Assembly: GCF_022846255.1 (NCBI RefSeq)
Contig: NZ_AP025682.1
Source: Escherichia coli
GTDB taxonomy: Bacteria; Pseudomonadota; Gammaproteobacteria; Enterobacterales; Enterobacteriaceae
Reading direction: 5' to 3' (one strand)
DNA: 64,000 nt
In this document: positions 2,201 to 64,000 of the stretch, piece by piece
How the letters are laid out: each line of letters starts with the position of its first letter
Position numbering within the stretch: position 1 is the first letter of the stretch
Notes under the pieces: model-generated
The model's input: the letters and a program-made list of their open reading frames with translations, nothing else
Told to the model about the DNA's origin: nothing
The model's database searches: none
Translations under genes and position numbers: made by a program

Positions 2201-4375
2201 ATGCTGCGATGGACACGCTGTATTATGCTAACATTTATCTCTGGGGCTGCTTTTGCGGCTCCAGAGATAAATGTTGAGCATAAAGAATCATTACCTGATT
2301 TAGGTAGTCAGGCCGCACAACAAGAAGAACAAACCAACAAGGGGAAATCGCTAAAAGAGCGTGGTGCCGATTACGTCATTAACTCCGCCACGCAAGGGTT
2401 TGAAAACTTGGCCCCTGAGGCGCTGGAATCTCAGGCCAGAAGCTATCTGCAAAGTCAAATCACCTCAACCGCACAATCTTATATTGAAGACACACTCTCT
2501 CCCTACGGTAAGGTCCGTTCGAACCTCTCCATTGGTCAGGGCGGCGATCTGGATGGCAGTTCCATCGATTATTTTGTTCCCTGGTACGATAATCAAACCA
2601 CTGTTTATTTCAGCCAATTTTCTGCACAACGAAAAGAAGATCGTACGATCGGGAATATTGGGCTTGGTGTAAGACATAATTTTGATAAATGGTTGTTGGG
2701 TGGAAATATATTTTATGATTATGATTTTACCCGTGGGCATCGCCGTTTAGGTTTAGGTGCCGAAGCGTGGACTGATTATTTAAAATTCTCTGGCAACTAT
2801 TATCACCCGCTTTCTGACTGGAAAGACTCCGAAGATTTCGATTTTTATGAGGAGCGTCCTGCGCGCGGCTGGGATATTCGCGCCGAAGCCTGGCTTCCCG
2901 CTTATCCGCAGCTTGGTGGTAAAATTGTTTTCGAACAGTATTACGGTAATGAAGTCGCGCTTTTTGGCACTGATAATCTGGAGAAAGATCCCTACGCGGT
3001 AACGCTTGGACTGAATTATCAACCAGTGCCGTTACTGACAGTTGGGACGGACTATAAAGCGGGGACCGGAGATAACAGTGATGTCAGCATTAATGCCACT
3101 CTTAATTATCAGTTTGGCGTTCCGCTAAAAGATCAATTGGATAGCGATAAAGTGAAAGCGGCGCACTCGCTGATGGGCAGCCGTCTTGATTTCGTTGAGC
3201 GTAATAACTTTATTGTTCTGGAATACAAAGAAAAAGATCCGCTTGATGTCACCCTGTGGTTGAAAGCGGATGCCACCAACGAGCACCCTGAGTGCGTCAT
3301 TAAGGACACTCCCGAAGAAGCCGTCGGTCTGGAAAAATGTAAGTGGACCATTAACGCACTCATTAATCATCACTACAAAATCGTTGCGGCCTCCTGGCAG
3401 GCGAAAAACAATGCTGCCCGCACGCTGGTGATGCCGGTTATCAAAGAGAATACTCTGACAGAGGGTAACAATAACCACCGGAACCTGGTGCTGCCTGCCT
3501 GGCAGTACAGTTCCGATCAAGCCGAACAAGAAAAACTCAATACCTGGCGGGTTCGTCTGGCGCTGGAAGATGAAAAAGGCAATCGGCAGAGCTCCGGTGT
3601 GGTGGAAATCACCGTTCAACAGGACCGTAAAATTGAGCTCATCGTTAACAACATCGCCAATGTACCGGATAAGAGCAATCACAGCCACGAAGCCAGCGCA
3701 CAGGCCGATGGTGTAGATGGTGTAGTGATGGATCTCGATATTACTGATAGCTTTGGCGACAACACTGACCGCAACGGTAATGTCTTGCCGCAGGATAATC
3801 TCAACCCGCAGTTGTTTGATGCCAACGATAAAAAAGTGACGCTGACGAATAACCCCTGCACTACCGAGACTCCCTGTGTCTTTATCGCCAAACAAGATAA
3901 AGAAAAGGGGACCGTTACGCTCTCCAGTACGTTGCCTGGCACCTTCCGTTGGAAGGCGAAAGCTGCTCCCTATGATGACAGTAACTATGTTGACGTAACG
4001 TTCCTGGGTTCTGACATCGGCGGGCTGAATGCCTTTATCTATCGTGTTGGTGCGGCTAAGCCCGTGAATCTTATCGGCAATAAAGAACCGTTGCCTCTCA
4101 ATAGCAGCTATCGCTTTGTGTTGTGGCGTGACGCTAACAAAGACGGCGTGTTCCAGCTATCAGAGAAACTCACTGAAGAGGAGATGAAACAGTATGACTA
4201 TCAGTGGGAATTCACGGGACATAGCGTGAATGGCAATACCGGTGCGCAAGCCAATACCACTAACGTCGATATAGAGATCCCGGCAACGAACAAGGAAGCG
4301 GCAGCGAAGTTTAGTGCCCAGGTAACCGATGGCGTGCAGGGATACGGTTTGCAGGTCAATTACAGCAAGAAATAG
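2201..4375 (+). CDS. sinH: Inverse autotransporter adhesin of the intimin/invasin family (SinH-like), 724 aa
   Basis: N-terminal signal peptide (…FISGAAFA/APE). Residues ~110-330 show intimin/invasin beta-barrel-type sequence (DYFVPWYD, LGLGAEAWTDYLKFSGNYYHPLSDW, GWDIRAEAWLP, LGLNYQP), followed by an Ig-like passenger. RBS GGAAAAGG upstream. Confidence 0.85.
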   Translation: MLRWTRCIMLTFISGAAFAAPEINVEHKESLPDLGSQAAQQEEQTNKGKSLKERGADYVINSATQGFENLAPEALESQARSYLQSQITSTAQSYIEDTLSPYGKVRSNLSIGQGGDLDGSSIDYFVPWYDNQTTVYFSQFSAQRKEDRTIGNIGLGVRHNFDKWLLGGNIFYDYDFTRGHRRLGLGAEAWTDYLKFSGNYYHPLSDWKDSEDFDFYEERPARGWDIRAEAWLPAYPQLGGKIVFEQYYGNEVALFGTDNLEKDPYAVTLGLNYQPVPLLTVGTDYKAGTGDNSDVSINATLNYQFGVPLKDQLDSDKVKAAHSLMGSRLDFVERNNFIVLEYKEKDPLDVTLWLKADATNEHPECVIKDTPEEAVGLEKCKWTINALINHHYKIVAASWQAKNNAARTLVMPVIKENTLTEGNNNHRNLVLPAWQYSSDQAEQEKLNTWRVRLALEDEKGNRQSSGVVEITVQQDRKIELIVNNIANVPDKSNHSHEASAQADGVDGVVMDLDITDSFGDNTDRNGNVLPQDNLNPQLFDANDKKVTLTNNPCTTETPCVFIAKQDKEKGTVTLSSTLPGTFRWKAKAAPYDDSNYVDVTFLGSDIGGLNAFIYRVGAAKPVNLIGNKEPLPLNSSYRFVLWRDANKDGVFQLSEKLTEEEMKQYDYQWEFTGHSVNGNTGAQANTTNVDIEIPATNKEAAAKFSAQVTDGVQGYGLQVNYSKK

Positions 4376-55830: not shown

Positions 55831-56781
55831 TTATAGTTTGGCGGCAAGAAGATCTTCCAGTTTGCGTTGATCAACGGCGAACAGACGAATGCCTTCAGAC
55901 AGTTTTTCTACCGCCATCGCATCCTGATTGTGCTCCCAACGGAATTCCGCTTCGCTCATGGGAGCTGGGCGTGGGAACGTCTGAGAAGGTGGGATTAATT
56001 TACGTACCACTGGCGAAACTTTTTCCTGTAGCTCCTTCAGCAAATTCGGTGCGATAGTCAGTCGGTCGCAGCCGGTTAAGGCGAGGATTTGTTCGGTGCG
56101 ACGGAAGCTCGCGCCCATCACAATGGTTTCATAGTGGTGTTGCTTATAGTAGTCGTAGATATTGCGTACTGATTTAACGCCTGGATCTTCTTCCACCACA
56201 TACGGGTCCATCGGCTTGCGTGCCTGATACCAGTCATAAATACGCCCGACAAACGGCGAAATCAGAAAAACGCCTGCTTCTGCACAGGCCCGCGCCTGTG
56301 CAAAAGAAAACAGCAGCGTCAGGTTGCAGTTGATACCTTCTTTTTCCAGCTCTTCTGCCGCGCGAATTCCTTCCCAGGTCGAAGCCAGCTTGATCAGAAT
56401 GCGCGATTTCTCAACGCCTTGTTGCTGATACAAGTCCACCAGATGGCGCGCCTTCTCAATACTCTTTTCTTTATCAAAAGAGAGGCGTGCATCAACTTCT
56501 GTTGACACGCGACCGGGTACGATTTTGAGAATTTCAGCACCGAAATTGACCGCCAGTTTGTCACACGCTGCGACCACCTGTTGTTCCTGGGTCTTGCCAT
56601 TTTTTTTACCCCAGGCGATAGCATCGTCTATTAAATGCTCATATTGTGATAATCCGGCAGCCTTGAGTAACAGCGAAGGATTGGTGGTGGCATCCTGGGG
56701 ATGATAATGGCGAATGGACTCAATATCGCCGCTGTCTGCCACGACAGTGGTGAACTGTTTGATGCCGTCTAACTCGTTCAT
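55831..56781 (-). CDS. talA: Transaldolase A
   Basis: 316-aa transaldolase (…[13 protein letters not shown]…), immediately upstream of tktB. Confidence 0.95.
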
Positions 56782-57069
56782 AGGAAATACTCCTTGAAAA
56801 GTAAAGTGTTAGATGAGTGCGTTAATTCACACTTCTGAGGAATTTCGCTAAACGCATCAAAAAAGCATAGCAGACAGGCATGGTATTGCTGGATTAAGCA
56901 GGTAACATCAGTGTTATAGGATTATTACCAAAACATTATATTAATGGTGAGAGTTTGGACTTGCTCAAAGTCTGTAGACTCCGGCAGGGTAATAATGTGC
57001 GCCACGTTGTGGACAGGGGCTGTTGCCCACACACTTTATTTGTGAACGTTACGTGAAAGGAACAACCAA

Positions 57070-59349
57070 ATGGATGACCAGTTAAAACAAAGTGCACTTG
57101 ATTTCCATGAATTTCCAGTTCCAGGGAAAATCCAGGTTTCTCCAACCAAGCCTCTGGCAACGCAGCGCGATCTGGCGCTGGCCTACTCACCAGGCGTTGC
57201 CGCACCTTGTCTTGAAATCGAAAAAGACCCGTTAAAAGCCTACAAATATACCGCGCGCGGTAACCTGGTAGCGGTGATCTCTAACGGTACGGCGGTGCTG
57301 GGGTTAGGCAACATTGGCGCGCTGGCAGGCAAACCGGTGATGGAAGGCAAGGGCGTTCTGTTTAAGAAATTCGCCGGGATTGATGTATTTGACATTGAAG
57401 TTGATGAACTCGACCCGGACAAATTTATTGAAGTCGTCGCTGCGCTCGAACCGACCTTCGGCGGCATCAACCTCGAAGACATTAAAGCGCCAGAATGTTT
57501 CTATATTGAACAGAAACTGCGCGAGCGGATGAATATTCCGGTATTCCACGACGATCAGCACGGCACGGCAATTATCAGCACTGCCGCCATCCTCAACGGC
57601 TTGCGCGTGGTGGAGAAAAACATCTCCGACGTGCGGATGGTGGTTTCTGGCGCGGGTGCCGCAGCAATTGCCTGTATGAACCTGCTGGTAGCGCTGGGTC
57701 TGCAAAAACATAACATCGTGGTTTGCGATTCAAAAGGCGTTATCTATCAGGGCCGTGAGCCAAACATGGCGGAAACCAAAGCCGCATACGCGGTGGTGGA
57801 TGACGGTAAACGTACCCTCGATGATGTGATTGAAGGCGCGGATATTTTCCTCGGCTGTTCCGGCCCGAAAGTGCTGACCCAGGAAATGGTGAAGAAAATG
57901 GCCCGTGCGCCAATGATCCTGGCGCTGGCGAATCCGGAACCGGAAATTCTGCCGCCGCTGGCGAAAGAAGTGCGTCCGGATGCCATCATCTGTACCGGCC
58001 GTTCCGACTACCCGAACCAGGTGAACAACGTTCTTTGCTTCCCGTTCATCTTCCGTGGCGCGCTGGACGTTGGCGCAACCGCCATCAACGAAGAGATGAA
58101 ACTGGCGGCGGTACGCGCAATTGCAGAACTGGCCCATGCGGAACAGAGTGAAGTGGTGGCTTCAGCGTATGGCGATCAGGATCTGAGCTTTGGTCCGGAA
58201 TACATCATTCCAAAACCGTTTGATCCGCGCTTGATCGTTAAGATCGCTCCTGCGGTCGCTAAAGCCGCGATGGAGTCGGGCGTGGCGACGCGTCCGATTG
58301 CTGATTTCGACGTCTACATCGACAAGCTGACGGAGTTCGTTTACAAAACCAACCTGTTTATGAAGCCGATTTTCTCCCAGGCTCGCAAAGCGCCGAAGCG
58401 CGTCGTTCTGCCGGAAGGGGAAGAGGCGCGCGTTCTGCATGCCACTCAGGAACTGGTAACGCTGGGGCTGGCGAAACCGATCCTTATCGGTCGTCCGAAT
58501 GTGATCGAAATGCGCATTCAGAAACTGGGCTTGCAGATCAAAGCGGGCGTTGATTTTGAGATCGTCAATAACGAATCCGATCCGCGCTTTAAAGAGTACT
58601 GGACCGAATACTTCCAGATCATGAAGCGTCGCGGTGTCACTCAGGAACAGGCGCAGCGTGCATTGATCAGTAACCCGACAGTGATTGGCGCGATCATGGT
58701 TCAGCGTGGCGAAGCCGATGCAATGATTTGCGGTACGGTGGGTGATTATCATGAACATTTTAGCGTGGTGAAAAATGTCTTTGGTTATCGCGATGGCGTT
58801 CACACCGCAGGTGCAATGAACGCGCTGCTGTTGCCGAGTGGTAACACCTTTATTGCCGATACCTACGTCAATGATGAGCCTGATGCAGAAGAGCTGGCGG
58901 AGATCACCTTGATGGCGGCAGAAACTGTTCGTCGTTTTGGTATTGAGCCGCGTGTGGCTCTGTTGTCGCACTCCAACTTTGGTTCTTCTGACTGCCCGTC
59001 GTCGAGCAAAATGCGTCAGGCGCTGGAACTGGTCAGGGAACGTGCACCAGAACTGATGATTGATGGTGAAATGCACGGCGATGCAGCGCTGGTGGAAGCG
59101 ATTCGCAACGACCGTATGCCGGACAGCCCTTTGAAAGGTTCCGCTAATATTCTGGTGATGCCGAACATGGAAGCTGCCCGCATTAGTTACAACTTACTGC
59201 GCGTTTCCAGCTCGGAAGGTGTGACTGTCGGTCCGGTGCTGATGGGCGTGGCGAAACCGGTTCACGTGTTAACGCCGATCGCATCTGTACGTCGTATCGT
59301 CAACATGGTGGCGCTGGCCGTGGTTGAAGCGCAAACCCAACCGCTGTAA
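57070..59349 (+). CDS. maeB: NADP-dependent malic enzyme
   Basis: 759 aa with an N-terminal malic-enzyme domain and a C-terminal phosphotransacetylase-like domain. Confidence 0.95.
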
Positions 59350-59399
59350 TTCTTTTTTAACTCTCACGCTTACCCTGAATATTCAGGGTAAGCGGTTTA

Positions 59400-59641
59400 G
59401 CTGCAATATATTAGTAAAGTTTATTACTGAGTTTGCGAATAATAAAAAAATCAGTATATAAAATATCTCGATATTATTTTATTTATATTCATGCGTTGCA
59501 TATGAAAGTTTATGCACCACATCAAATATCTCTCCATTCTTAGTGATCTACCTCACCTTTTAAACGCGCTTGCCGAATTTTGTTATTTACTCTGACGAAA
59601 AATTGTCACGATACACGAAAGTTTTTCACAGGCGGCGACTC
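59400..59641 (+). promoter_or_regulatory. eut operon upstream control region (AT-rich)
   Basis: About 240 bp of AT-rich non-coding sequence before eutS; no individual site assigned. Confidence 0.3.
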
Positions 59642-59977
59642 ATGGATAAAGAACGCATCATTCAGGAATTTGTGCCCGGTAAACAGGTCACACTGGCGCA
59701 TCTCATCGCGCATCCCGGCGAGGAACTGGCGAAGAAAATCGGCGTTCCGGATGCGGGCGCAATCGGCATTATGACGCTAACTCCCGGAGAAACGGCGATG
59801 ATCGCCGGTGATTTAGCGTTGAAAGCCGCCGATGTGCATATCGGTTTTCTCGACCGTTTTAGCGGCGCGCTGGTGATTTATGGCTCGGTGGGCGCAGTAG
59901 AAGAAGCGTTATCACAAACCGTCAGTGGTTTAGGACGCTTATTAAATTATACGCTTTGTGAAATGACCAAAAGTTAA
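59642..59977 (+). CDS. eutS: Ethanolamine-utilisation microcompartment shell protein EutS
   Basis: Start placed at [14 protein letters not shown]… (111 aa), a circularly permuted BMC-domain protein. Confidence 0.85.
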
Positions 59978-59989
59978 TACGAGGCATTC

Positions 59990-60469
59990 ATGAAACGAAT
60001 TGCGTTTGTGGGTACCGTCGGGGCAGGAAAAACAACGTTATTTAATGCGTTGCAGGGGAATTATACCCTCGCAAGAAAAACACAGGCCGTGGAATTTAAT
60101 GATAATGGCGATATCGATACGCCGGGTGAATATTTTAGCCATCCCCGCTGGTATCACGCCTTAATTACCACGCTACAGGATGTGGACATGCTGATCTATG
60201 TCCACGGCGCGAATGACCCGGAAAGTCGGTTGCCTGCCGGGTTGCTGGATATTGGCGTCAGCAAACGGCAAATCGCCGTCATCAGTAAAACGGACATGCC
60301 AGATGCTGACGTCGCCGCAACGCGAAAGTTATTGCTTGAGACGGGCTTCGAAGAGCCGATTTTCGAGCTAAACAGCCACGACCCGCAAAGCGTGCAGCAA
60401 CTGGTGGATTATCTGGCATCTCTCACCAAACAGGAGGAAGCAGGTGAAAAAACTCATCACAGCGAATGA
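59990..60469 (+). CDS. eutP: Ethanolamine-utilisation P-loop GTPase/acetate kinase-like protein EutP
   Basis: 159 aa with a Walker A motif (GTVGAGKTTL). Confidence 0.9.
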   Translation: MKRIAFVGTVGAGKTTLFNALQGNYTLARKTQAVEFNDNGDIDTPGEYFSHPRWYHALITTLQDVDMLIYVHGANDPESRLPAGLLDIGVSKRQIAVISKTDMPDADVAATRKLLLETGFEEPIFELNSHDPQSVQQLVDYLASLTKQEEAGEKTHHSE

Positions 60470-61145
60470 TATTCGTGAAGCACACGCGCGCGGCGAACTG
60501 GCAATGTCCGTGGTTCTGCGCGCCAGCATTATTACCCCGGAAGCTCGTGAAGTGGCTGATCTGTTGGGTTTTACCATCACCGAATGTGATGAATCGATCC
60601 CGGTAACGGCGTCTGTTCCCGCCAGCGCATCAGCCGATAAAACCGAAAGCCAGCGCATCCGTGAAACCATTATCGCCCAACTGCCGGAAGGTCAGTTTAC
60701 CGAAAGCCTGGTCGCGCAGCTGATGGAAAAAGTGATGAAGGAAAAACAGTCGCTGGAACAGGGTGCACTGCAGCCGAGCTTTAAATCGGTGACCGGCAAA
60801 GGCGGCATCAAAGTTATTGATGGCAGCAGCGTCAAGTTTGGTCGTTTCGACGGCGCACAGCCGCACTGTGTAGGCTTGACTGATCTCGTGACCGGAGACG
60901 ACGGCAGCAGTATGGCCGCTGGTTTCATGCAGTGGGAGAACGCATTCTTCCCGTGGACTCTGAACTACGACGAAATCGACATGGTGCTGGAAGGGGAGCT
61001 GCATGTTCGCCACGAAGGCGAAACTATGATCGCCAAAGCGGGCGATGTGATGTTTATCCCGAAAGGCTCCAGCATCGAATTTGGTACGACATCCAGCGTG
61101 AAATTTCTGTATGTCGCCTGGCCGGCTAACTGGCAATCCCTATGA
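60444..61145 (+). CDS. eutQ: Ethanolamine-utilisation protein EutQ (cupin)
   Basis: 233 aa; overlaps the eutP 3' end by 26 nt. Confidence 0.9.
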   Translation: MKKLITANDIREAHARGELAMSVVLRASIITPEAREVADLLGFTITECDESIPVTASVPASASADKTESQRIRETIIAQLPEGQFTESLVAQLMEKVMKEKQSLEQGALQPSFKSVTGKGGIKVIDGSSVKFGRFDGAQPHCVGLTDLVTGDDGSSMAAGFMQWENAFFPWTLNYDEIDMVLEGELHVRHEGETMIAKAGDVMFIPKGSSIEFGTTSSVKFLYVAWPANWQSL

Positions 61146-61945
61146 AAGATTTCATCACCGAAGCATGGCTAAGAGCGAACCATACGCTCAGCGAAGGCGC
61201 AGAGATCCATCTCCCTGCGGACAGTCGCCTGACGCCCTCTGCCCGGGAGTTACTGGAAAGCCGCCATCTGCGCATCAAGTTTATTGACGAGCAGGGCCGC
61301 CTGTTTGTTGACGATGAACAGCAGCAGCCGCAGCCCGTTCACGGGCTGACCAGTAGCGATGAACATCCGCAGGCGTGCTGCGAACTGTGCCGCCAGCCGG
61401 TGGCAAAAAAGCCGGATACGCTGACTCACCTGTCGGCGGAAAAAATAGTTGCCAAAAGCGATCCGCGCCTGGCTTTTCGCGCTGTTCTCGACAGCACCAT
61501 TGCGCTGGCAGTGTGGCTGCAAATTGAACTGGCGGAACCGTGGCAGCCGTGGCTGGCGGATATCCGTTCGCGTCTTGGCAACATTATGCGCGCTGATGCG
61601 CTGGGGGAACCGCTGGCCTGCCAGGCGATTGTCGGGCTTTCTGACGAAGATCTGCATCGGCTTTCTCATCAACCGCTGCGCTATCTTGGTCACGATCATC
61701 TGGTGCCGGAAGCCAGCCACGGACGCGATGCGGCGTTGCTCAATCTGCTACGCACCAAAGTGCGGGAAACCGAAACCGTAGCAGCGCAGGTATTTATCAC
61801 CCGCAGCTTTGAAGTATTACGCCCGGACATCTTGCAGGCGCTGAACCGCCTTTCCAGCACGGTTTACGTGATGATGATCCTGAGCGTAGCGAAACAACCG
61901 CTAACGGTGAAGCAGATCCAACAACGACTGGGGGAAACGCAATGA
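61142..61945 (+). CDS. eutT: Ethanolamine-utilisation corrinoid adenosyltransferase EutT
   Basis: 267 aa; ATGA overlap with eutQ. Confidence 0.9.
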
Positions 61946-62958
61946 TTATTGAACGTTGTCGTGAACTGGCGTTGCGAGCGCCCGCCAGAGTAGTTTTTCC
62001 GGATGCGTTAGATCAACGTGTGCTGAAAGCTGCGCAATATTTACATCAACAAGGTCTGGCAACGCCCATTCTGGTCGCCAATCCGTTTGAACTTCGTCAG
62101 TTTGCGCTCAGTCACGGCGTGGCGATGGACGGGCTACAGGTGATAGATCCGCATGGCAACCTCGCAATGCGGGAAGAATTTGCTCATCGCTGGCTGGCCC
62201 GCGCGGGCGAAAAAACGCCGCCGGATGCGCTGGAAAAACTTACCGATCCGCTGATGTTCGCCGCCGCAATGGTCAGCGCCGGTAAAGCGGATGTCTGTAT
62301 CGCGGGCAACCTCTCTTCCACGGCGAATGTGCTGCGTGCCGGATTACGCATTATCGGCTTGCAGCCAGGCTGTAAAACGCTCTCATCCATTTTCCTGATG
62401 CTGCCACAGTACAGCGGTCCGGCGTTGGGTTTTGCCGATTGCAGCGTGGTGCCACAGCCGACGGCGGCACAACTGGCGGATATCGCGCTTGCCAGCGCCG
62501 AAACCTGGCGCGCCATCACCGGAGAAGAACCGCGCGTGGCGATGCTGTCGTTTTCCAGCAACGGTAGTGCCCGTCACCCCTGCGTTGCCAACGTCCAGCA
62601 GGCGACAGAAATCGTCCGTGAGCGCGCACCAAAGCTGGTTGTCGATGGCGAGTTGCAGTTTGACGCCGCCTTCGTGCCGGAAGTGGCGGCGCAAAAAGCG
62701 CCTGCCAGCCCGTTACAGGGCAAAGCCAATGTGATGGTTTTTCCGTCGCTGGAGGCAGGAAATATTGGCTACAAAATCGCACAACGACTTGGCGGATATC
62801 GTGCCGTCGGGCCATTGATACAAGGACTTGCCGCGCCGATGCACGATCTCTCTCGTGGTTGTAGCGTGCAGGAAATTATCGAACTGGCGCTGGTGGCAGC
62901 TGTGCCGCGTCAGACAGAAGTGAACCGCGAAAGCAGTTTACAAACACTGGTTGAATGA
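61942..62958 (+). CDS. eutD: Ethanolamine-utilisation phosphotransacetylase EutD
   Basis: 338-aa Pta-like protein; ATGA overlap with eutT. Confidence 0.9.
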
Positions 62959-62996
62959 ACGGTCCCGTTCTGGACCCTGATAAAGAGGAAAGCACA

Positions 62997-63290
62997 ATGG
63001 AAGCATTAGGAATGATCGAAACCCGGGGCCTGGTTGCACTGATTGAGGCTTCTGACGCGATGGTTAAAGCTGCGCGCGTCAAGCTGGTTGGTGTTAAGCA
63101 GATTGGCGGCGGCCTGTGTACTGCCATGGTTCGTGGTGATGTTGCAGCCTGTAAAGCCGCGACCGATGCCGGTGCCGCAGCGGCACAGCGTATCGGCGAG
63201 CTGGTATCTGTACACGTTATCCCGCGTCCGCACGGCGACCTGGAAGAAGTCTTCCCGATCGGCCTGAAAGGCGATAGCAGCAACCTGTAA
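62997..63290 (+). CDS. eutM: BMC shell protein EutM
   Basis: AGAGGA upstream of the ATG at 62997; translation [28 protein letters not shown]… (97 aa). Confidence 0.9.
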
Positions 63291-63396
63291 TCACCCTGTG
63301 TGACGTCGATTCGGGCGTCACGCTCTCTCCTTTTTCATTTTACCTTCTGCGGAGGGTAGGGGGAGCTTTTACCTGAAATACGCCACGGAGGCGGGT

Positions 63397-63684
63397 ATGA
63401 AACTGGCAGTCGTCACTGGACAAATTGTTTGTACCGTACGCCATCACGGACTGGCGCATGACAAATTGCTGATGGTGGAAATGATTGATCCACAAGGTAA
63501 TCCTGACGGGCAATGCGCCGTCGCCATCGACAATATTGGCGCGGGAACCGGGGAGTGGGTGTTACTGGTGAGTGGCAGTTCCGCCCGCCAGGCGCATAAA
63601 AGCGAAACGTCACCGGTCGATCTGTGCGTGATTGGCATTGTCGATGAGGTGGTGTCTGGCGGTCAGGTCATTTTCCACAAATAA
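63397..63684 (+). CDS. eutN: BMC vertex protein EutN
   Basis: 95-aa EutN/CcmL-family protein (MKLAVVTGQIVCTVRHHG…). Confidence 0.9.
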   Translation: MKLAVVTGQIVCTVRHHGLAHDKLLMVEMIDPQGNPDGQCAVAIDNIGAGTGEWVLLVSGSSARQAHKSETSPVDLCVIGIVDEVVSGGQVIFHK

Positions 63685-63695
63685 GGCAGAACATC

Positions 63696-64000
63696 ATGAA
63701 TCAACAGGATATTGAACAGGTGGTGAAAGCGGTACTGCTGAAAATGCAAAGCAGTGACACGCCGCCCGCCGCCGTTCATGAGATGGGCGTTTTCGCGTCC
63801 CTGGATGACGCCGTTGCGGCAGCCAAAGTCGCCCAGCAAGGGTTAAAAAGCGTGGCAATGCGCCAGTTAGCCATTGCTGCCATTCGTGAGGCAGGCGAAA
63901 AACACGCCAGAGATTTAGCGGAACTTGCCGTCAGTGAAACCGGCATGGGGCGCGTTGAAGATAAATTTGCCAAAAACGTCGCTCAGGCGCGCGGCACACC
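63696..64000 (+). CDS. eutE: Acetaldehyde dehydrogenase EutE, 5' part only (runs off the window end)
   Basis: ATG at 63696; translation MNQQDIEQVVKAVLLKMQSS…ETGMGRVEDKFAKN…; absent from the ORF track because there is no stop within the window. Confidence 0.8.
   Translation, partial: MNQQDIEQVVKAVLLKMQSSDTPPAAVHEMGVFASLDDAVAAAKVAQQGLKSVAMRQLAIAAIREAGEKHARDLAELAVSETGMGRVEDKFAKNVAQARGT

Follow-up and report, generated by a model that had tools for sequence, protein, structure and literature searches.

Gene content of the eut region

The promoter-proximal part of the ethanolamine utilisation (eut) operon of Escherichia coli lies at the 3' end of the 64,000-nt stretch of DNA analysed here (contig NZ_AP025682.1 of RefSeq assembly GCF_022846255.1; hereafter the window), in which eutS through to the start of eutE follow maeB on one strand. 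The region is very probably the intact promoter-proximal half of a canonical EUT1-type eut operon, in its usual place beside maeB in E. coli, for which the full gene order is eutSPQTDMNEJGHABCLKR. The locus is already known and ordinary: the operon, its adjacency to maeB, the gene overlaps and the EutR-dependent promoter are textbook or database knowledge, and no overlap, hairpin or AT-tract feature is unusual for this locus. The spacer between eutM and eutN is without RefSeq annotation, and it is suggested tentatively below that this spacer is an RNA module acting in cis. The features of the region are collected in Table 1.

Table 1. Features from talA to the start of eutE, in window coordinates (SD, Shine-Dalgarno sequence; ORF, open reading frame; aa, amino acids)
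Feature	Position	Strand	Basis or remarks
talA	55831-56781	-	ORF list
maeB, NADP-dependent malic enzyme, 759 aa	57070-59349	+	stop TAA 59347-59349; length as in K-12 b2463 and LF82
Palindromic hairpin after maeB	59367-59394	+	arms 59367-59380 / 59381-59394, perfect 14+14
AT-rich spacer, Escherichia only among compared genera	59395-59536	.	GC ~0.28-0.31, C > G; single copy, unannotated
Cross-genus conserved block, eut promoter region, 76 bp	59537-59612	+	Escherichia/Citrobacter/Pseudocitrobacter alignment
Putative 5' untranslated region of eutS, ~47 nt	59595-59641	+	Salmonella eutS RNA alignment; weak SD AGGCGG 59630-59635
eutS, shell protein, 111 aa	59642-59977	+	NF012012, 1-111/111
eutP, 159 aa	59990-60469	+	NF012011, 1-159/159
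eutQ, 233 aa, GTG start	60444-61145	+	NF012001, 1-233/233
eutT, 267 aa	61142-61945	+	full-length NCBIfam EutT match
eutD, phosphotransacetylase, 338 aa	61942-62958	+	NCBIfam, residues 3-322
eutM, major shell hexamer, 97 aa	62997-63290	+	NF012018, 1-97/97
H1, 10-bp GC-rich hairpin, starts 8 nt after eutM stop	63298-63323	+	terminator scan, folding
H2, composite hairpin	63325-63370	+	stem ends 63365, then CUUUU; folding, covariation, covariance model
ACCUGAAAU box downstream of U-tract	63371-63379	+	cross-species alignments
eutN, vertex pentamer, 95 aa	63397-63684	+	NF011992, 1-95/95; SD GGAGG 63387-63391
eutE 5' part, acetaldehyde dehydrogenase, first 101 codons	63696-64000	+	runs off window end

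The gene order eutS, eutP, eutQ, eutT, eutD, eutM, eutN and the start of eutE after maeB had been proposed in a sequence-only reading of the same DNA, and it is identical to that in the gene tables of strains LF82 and K-12. The same reading would have been refuted by frameshifts in the eut genes; none was found in the seven complete eut genes, as judged from their ORFs and NCBIfam matches. Every complete ORF is exactly as long as the orthologs of K-12 MG1655 and LF82, from which its product differs at 0-6 amino acids (1-2 for maeB, against K-12 b2463 and LF82). EutS, EutP, EutQ, EutT, EutM and EutN match the like-named NCBIfam models from end to end and above the curated cut-off, and EutD matches phosphotransacetylase models (pta subfamily) over residues 3-322 of 338, also above the curated cut-off. 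The best NCBIfam match of MaeB is NADP-dependent malic enzyme, with 1162.7 bits, slightly below the curated cut-off of 1178. The talA and maeB genes flank the operon in the window, in agreement with the context in LF82 and K-12, and the eut operon has been described as flanked by maeB, talA and tktB (PMC11334477).

The 4.7-kb stretch was matched in 5,423 of 5,426 complete E. coli genomes, and over at least 80% of its length in 5,405 of them. The best genome match is the B2 strain LF82 (99.3% DNA identity), in which all 17 genes of the operon are present through to eutR, without a prophage. The K-12 operon (b2437-b2462, beside maeB b2463) has the same genes, order, lengths, start codons and overlaps, as well as the same 292-bp maeB-eutS gap and 106-nt eutM-eutN gap, and differs from the window by ~2.8% at the nucleotide level over 59642-64000 (121 differences). 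The same 17-gene architecture is described in the literature for Salmonella enterica. Against an intact operon stands the position of the window end inside eutE, so that the intactness of the 10 distal genes is a matter for sequence beyond the window. An operon that is present but non-functional, interrupted or decayed further downstream, would be in keeping with the truncation of eutE by the window end at codon 101, with the CPZ-55 prophage that separates eutA from eutB in K-12 MG1655 (downstream of the point at which the window ends), and with the insertion sequence (IS) elements found in the eut operon of some strains, such as IS911 in the eutM-eutN spacer of strain 90-1. This is quite improbable here, given that all seven complete eut genes are intact and that the operon of the closest relative, LF82, is uninterrupted. 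The finding serves as a check that the genome carries an intact promoter-proximal eut region, which is of relevance in that ethanolamine use affects gut colonisation and virulence.

Divergence from LF82 is concentrated in the 3' half of eutT, where 61591-61897 holds 23 of the 34 differences over 59642-64000 (~7.5% divergence, mostly synonymous); eutS, eutD and eutN are identical to LF82. This segment has a best match of 98.4% in other E. coli, and most genomes match it at 90-95%. Two classes of eutT allele within E. coli have recombined here into an ordinary mosaic. An origin as foreign DNA was rejected, as other E. coli carry the segment at 98.4% identity.

Gene junctions and translational coupling

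The sizes of the overlaps given in the sequence-only reading, 26 nt between eutP and eutQ and the tetranucleotide ATGA at both eutQ/eutT and eutT/eutD, were recovered without change, and K-12, LF82 and a divergent Escherichia (L049) share all three. Overlaps of the 4-nt ATGA type are commonplace among bacterial operons. All proteobacterial loci examined retain an overlap of eutT with eutD (-4 to -14). Among the loci compared, only Escherichia, Citrobacter and Pseudocitrobacter have a long overlap of eutP with a GTG-started eutQ (-26 or -23), and the eutQ/eutT ATGA overlap is found only in Escherichia and Pseudocitrobacter.

Translational coupling had been proposed for all three junctions. It is plausible at the two ATGA overlaps, where ribosomes would be passed on to translate eutT and eutD, but tight coupling is unlikely at eutP/eutQ. 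The eutQ gene has a strong AGGAGG sequence 6 nt upstream of its GTG start. In proteomic data from K-12 W3110, EutQ is the most abundant Eut protein (set to 100), with EutP at 7 and EutD at 10, making EutQ ~14 times more abundant than EutP (PMC11334477). This excess of EutQ speaks against tight coupling across the 26-nt overlap and, taken with the AGGAGG sequence of eutQ, suggests that eutQ is translated largely by itself, with ribosomes initiating at its own strong SD, and not in step with eutP.

The maeB-eutS gap and transcript insulation

The palindrome immediately downstream of maeB is predicted to form a stable hairpin, with a minimum free energy of -22 kcal/mol, 12 predicted pairs and z = -5.7; none of 200 shuffled sequences folds as well. 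The hairpin reported in the sequence-only reading is real, although it had been placed one base too early, at 59366-59393, and the absence of a T-tract noted there was confirmed: the stem is followed by GTTTAGCT (GUUUAGCU), and the hairpin was not flagged by a terminator scan. Thus, of the two parts of an intrinsic terminator, the GC-rich stem-loop is present and the U-tract is absent. The K-12 version of the hairpin has one mismatch (12 of 13 pairs).

The gap was compared across four Escherichia, five Citrobacter and one Pseudocitrobacter sequences (the latter two genera from L010, L021, L052, L102, L119 and L053). All four Escherichia sequences have the hairpin, whereas none of those from Citrobacter and Pseudocitrobacter does. 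In these two genera, a canonical terminator with a GC stem and T-tract (for example CCGGCGCGGGTTTCTCCCGCGCCTTTTTATTT) lies directly after maeB and the gap is only ~160 bp. Escherichia is without this terminator, and the site is taken up by ~190 bp of AT-rich DNA that includes the T-less hairpin.

The tract from 59395 to 59641 (247 bp) has a GC content of 32%, against 51.8% for the window. It had been described in the sequence-only reading as a 240-bp AT-rich leader; the composition is borne out, but the term leader is a misnomer, as only ~47 nt are likely to be 5' untranslated region; the other ~190 bp are spacer DNA specific to Escherichia, upstream of a conserved promoter block. The Escherichia-specific part of the tract is present at a coverage of at least 80% in 5,291 of 5,426 genomes. 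Direct repeats of 9-21 nt (ATAAAATATCTC... and ATCAAATATCTC..., 63 bp apart) occur within 59458-59541, and they flank ~55-60 bp that the divergent Escherichia SCPM-O-B-8794 (L049) lacks in its maeB-eutS gap. In E. coli SCU-301 (NZ_CP051751.1, near 1499292), only the first 54 nt of the gap match, and the match adjoins a gene annotated as a glucosamine inositolphosphorylceramide transferase family protein, suggesting an insertion between maeB and eutS.

In K-12 W3110, MaeB is unchanged by ethanolamine and vitamin B12, uninduced Eut proteins are barely detectable, and EutM rises 325-fold (PMC11334477). Insulation thus appears to work despite the missing U-tract: cells that make MaeB contain almost no Eut protein unless induced, and the inducers leave MaeB unaffected. 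Transcripts of maeB may end at, or be stabilised by, the T-less hairpin, and any read-through from maeB would be halted, most likely by Rho, within the untranslated AT-rich spacer with its excess of C over G. Rho acting on this spacer would be the likely reason for the insulation of eut from maeB, as judged from its base composition.

The alternative is that the T-less hairpin does not end maeB transcription, and that partial co-transcription of maeB and eut gives rise to basal, EutR-independent eut expression. Both the absence of a U-tract and the loss in Escherichia of the terminator found at this position in Citrobacter and Pseudocitrobacter are consistent with such read-through. It is nevertheless unlikely, in view of the scarcity of Eut proteins in uninduced W3110 cells that express MaeB, and of the ~250 nt of untranslated RNA with C in excess of G (GC skew down to -0.26), which form a plausible Rho substrate. 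No 3' ends of maeB, eutS or eutN are listed in the Term-seq tables of PMC7815308, and it should be noted that the published 3'-end maps were made under conditions in which the eut operon is silent. The exchange in Escherichia of the canonical maeB terminator of Citrobacter and Pseudocitrobacter for a T-less hairpin and an AT-rich spacer could be of importance if confirmed.

The eutS promoter region and leader

Upstream of eutS, a block that is nearly identical across Escherichia, Citrobacter and Pseudocitrobacter (TTCTTAGTGATCTACCTCACCTTTTAAAC..CTTGCCGAATTTTGTTATTTACTCTGACGAAAAATTGTCACGAT) is bordered by flanks that are not alignable. Within this block are a GTGA-N6-TCAC motif (59543-59556) and an extended -10-like sequence, TGtTATTTA (59581-59589). 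EutR, an activator of the AraC type, is reported to bind immediately upstream of the -35 element of P1, the single inducible promoter before eutS, and, with ethanolamine and adenosylcobalamin, to drive the whole operon (PMC5821096); its action at the eutS promoter has also been described elsewhere (PMC4643982). A sigma-70 promoter scan found no promoter in the maeB-eutS gap, a result that says little because P1 is activator-dependent.

In Salmonella, CsrA binds the eutS leader, and the RNA used in that study spans -47 to +48 and starts with ACAAAAAATTGCCACG (PMC10433801). The Salmonella leader is alignable with the window (ACAAAAAATTGCCACGAT versus ACGAAAAATTGTCACGAT), and the 5' end of the Salmonella RNA aligns with position 59595. 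We therefore infer that transcription starts near 59595, giving a leader of ~47 nt, and that the activator would bind within ~59537-59575. It weighs against this assignment that the start is taken from primer design in another species. The CRP-like GTGA-N6-TCAC motif is no better than chance as a pattern. A CRP site was rejected on this ground, with 16 matches in the window at up to two mismatches against 26.6 expected, and the motif was kept only as a conserved sub-block.

The leader contains a 15-nt direct repeat (59595-59609 and 59615-59629), and its predicted hairpin is no more stable than those of shuffled sequences (z = +0.45). In the start region of eutS (59642-59650, AUGGAUAAA), a GGA overlaps the start codon.

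Architecture and spread of the eutM-eutN spacer

The spacer between eutM and eutN (63291-63396, 106 nt) contains two hairpins, H1 and H2, followed by a short U-tract, a conserved ACCUGAAAU box and the eutN SD. In H2, an outer stem (63325-63331 with 63359-63365) and an inner stem (63341-63347 with 63352-63358) enclose a UGCG loop; the 5' arm is pyrimidine-rich and is interrupted by a U-rich internal loop, and the purine-rich 3' arm, AGGGG(G)A, is uninterrupted. The U run after H2 consists of 4 U in E. coli and of 4-7 U in relatives (3-7 U in the recurring architecture at large), and the 9-nt internal loop is atypical for an intrinsic terminator. Only H1 is flagged by the terminator scan in E. 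coli; both hairpins are flagged in one ortholog (L019). Full-text literature searches turned up no paper on the eutM-eutN spacer, and no Rfam 15 covariance model matched at E <= 1 over 56700-64000. Two further candidates were set aside within this region. Small ORFs in either intergenic spacer were rejected, as inspection by eye found no in-frame start codon before the UGA of the ACCUGAAAU box. A hairpin hiding the eutN ribosome-binding site, by pairing of ACCUG with CGGGU, was not adopted, as it is not conserved in Citrobacter.

Spacers from other genomes were gathered in three ways, from EutN homologs, by a pattern scan of genomes and by a pattern scan of metagenomes. The matches listed from the EutS-pattern scan of the genome collection were mostly from Firmicutes, with no Salmonella among them. 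The metagenome scan for the H2 tail gave eight true matches, from two lineages already sampled, and three chance matches. In all relatives compared the spacer is 106-154 nt long, with the exception of Photobacterium (52 nt), and in almost all complete proteobacterial loci compared no other gene junction up to eutE is as long. The architecture described above recurs in Escherichia, Citrobacter, 'Klebsiella sp. BIGb0407', Morganella, Pluralibacter, Entomohabitans, Chromobacterium, Silvimonas and two further contigs (L135 and L137), and a weaker form is found in Buttiauxella and a Rhodocyclaceae genome. A stable hairpin is present at the position of H1 in every spacer examined that is free of repetitive extragenic palindromic (REP) elements and long enough to be compared, and the two-hairpin fold was predicted independently in eight lineages, with z from -0.8 to -5.3. 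In Yokenella (L126), only the first hairpin is present. In S. enterica and K. pneumoniae, REP elements (GCCGGATAAGACGC...GCGTCGCCATCCGGC) occupy the eutM-eutN spacer instead of H1 and H2 (L123 1101-1200; L124 1073-1200; L133 1048-1200).

Within E. coli, the spacer occurs once per genome, and 4,397 of the 5,408 records that match it share at least 99% identity with the window. Five spacer variants differ at four positions, of which three are unpaired and the fourth changes a G-U pair to A-U.

Covariation in H2

Alignment of the raw spacers with MAFFT and RNAalifold missed the structure, with the 5' arms out of register by one or two columns. A hand-made, N-padded alignment of H2 was used instead; it was fitted to the structure, and the counts drawn from it are biased towards that structure. 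In this alignment of seven sequences, 88.6% of cells are paired, compared with 50-59% when the pairing partners are slid, and eight pairs have changed on both sides, compared with 0-4 when slid. None of 500 column shuffles was as high as the alignment in paired percentage or covariation score. A covariance model trained on the alignment found Silvimonas (E = 0.015) and Entomohabitans (E = 0.23), both outside the training set and both at the same position. No other convincing match was obtained in the 1.15 Mb searched, which included ~100 Firmicutes loci (remaining E >= 0.6), and none of the Firmicutes eut loci searched gave an H2 match. Taken together, these comparisons are supportive rather than conclusive that the H2 structure is real.

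Possible role of the eutM-eutN spacer

In K-12 W3110, with EutQ set to 100, protein levels of 96 for EutM, 1 for EutN, 27 for EutE and 37 for EutB have been reported (PMC11334477). The placing of two hairpins and a U-tract immediately behind the gene for the most abundant shell protein fits partial termination or protection of the mRNA 3' end. It is therefore suggested, tentatively, that the spacer is a hitherto undescribed cis-acting RNA module that sets the stoichiometry of the Eut shell (EutM >> EutN), and that REP elements take its place in Salmonella and K. pneumoniae. As part of the same tentative proposal, the module would be conserved across subdivisions of the Proteobacteria, from Enterobacterales to Betaproteobacteria. 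It may act by partial termination, by protection of the upstream mRNA 3' end or by directed processing. In the first two cases, H1 and H2 with the U-tract would attenuate transcription or protect the upstream mRNA, leaving EutM high relative to the products of the downstream genes, and we infer that this would explain the ~three-fold fall from EutM to EutE and EutB.

Several observations weigh against this proposal. EutE is encoded downstream of EutN and is nevertheless 27-fold more abundant, so that attenuation alone cannot explain the low level of EutN; it follows that eutN must also be poorly translated, and no conserved hairpin masking the eutN ribosome-binding site was found in the spacers. 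Salmonella and K. pneumoniae lack the H1/H2 element. The H2 alignment was fitted by hand to only seven sequences from ~5 lineages, and the E. coli U-tract comprises only 4 U.

The spacer may, on the other hand, have no specific regulatory role and represent a decayed, terminator-like or REP-like hairpin pair that is kept by linkage to two very conserved genes, a possibility that is likewise to be entertained with caution. Both neighbouring genes are near-invariant between K-12 and the window (2 of 294 nt differ in eutM and 1 of 288 in eutN), and low diversity of the spacer is consequently not specific. In keeping with an absence of function, the site is filled by unrelated REP elements in Salmonella and K. 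pneumoniae, Yokenella has kept only H1, one of the folds has a z of only -0.8, and just two matches, both weak, were given by the covariance model outside its training set. Linkage to conserved genes accounts less readily for features that persist from Enterobacterales to Chromobacterium and Silvimonas (EutN only 58-59% identical), namely the architecture, the contiguous AGGGG(G)A 3' arm, the U-tract and the ACCUGAAAU box, while the stems change with compensation. The placing of the E. coli polymorphisms at unpaired positions or as G-U to A-U, and the length of the eutM-eutN gap relative to the other junctions, also argue against a spacer without a role.

Stable hairpins between cistrons, including REP elements, can stabilise the upstream mRNA or partly terminate transcription, as in malE-malF. 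The eutM-eutN spacer resembles systems of the malE-malF type in its stable hairpins, placed immediately downstream of a highly expressed gene and ahead of genes of lower expression. It differs from them in being single copy, in lacking the REP consensus and in having a conserved box outside the hairpins, and it is known here from sequence alone. Membership of the REP or bacterial interspersed mosaic element (BIME) families, with their many copies and GCCGGATG-type consensus, is not supported for the E. coli spacer, whose sequence differs from the REP elements of Salmonella and K. pneumoniae. A second resemblance is to the EutV/EutW ANTAR terminators of Enterococcus and Listeria, which are likewise terminator-like hairpins placed inside the eut operon before particular genes. 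Unlike in those systems, no ANTAR regulator was seen in the eut gene sets annotated for K-12 and LF82. In the dual hexaloop motif of ANTAR systems, A is at position 1 and G at position 4, and the H1 hexaloop GAUUCG and the 4-nt loop of H2 do not fit it. Should a role for the spacer be confirmed, a folded spacer could explain how a ratio of ~100:1 between EutM and EutN is obtained from one transcript, which bears on the engineering of synthetic microcompartments.

Disruptions and antisense transcription at the spacer

In E. coli strain 90-1 (L153 2580-3858), IS911 has inserted into the U-tract right after H2 (GGGGGAGCTTT / IS911 / CTTTTACCTGAAAT) and separates eutM from eutN. In a Pluralibacter-like metagenome contig (L145 ~4020-4108), the spacer is intact as far as the eutN SD and is then followed by sequence unrelated to eutN, a break that may reflect a rearrangement or an assembly join. 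The sole eut entry in the Term-seq tables of uninduced K-12 (PMC7815308) is the 3' end of an RNA that lies antisense to eutM, within the 3' part of the gene. It is located at K-12 position 2572217 on the plus strand, which by our own conversion corresponds to window position ~63230 on the minus strand, and it implies an antisense transcript entering eutM from the side of the spacer or eutN.

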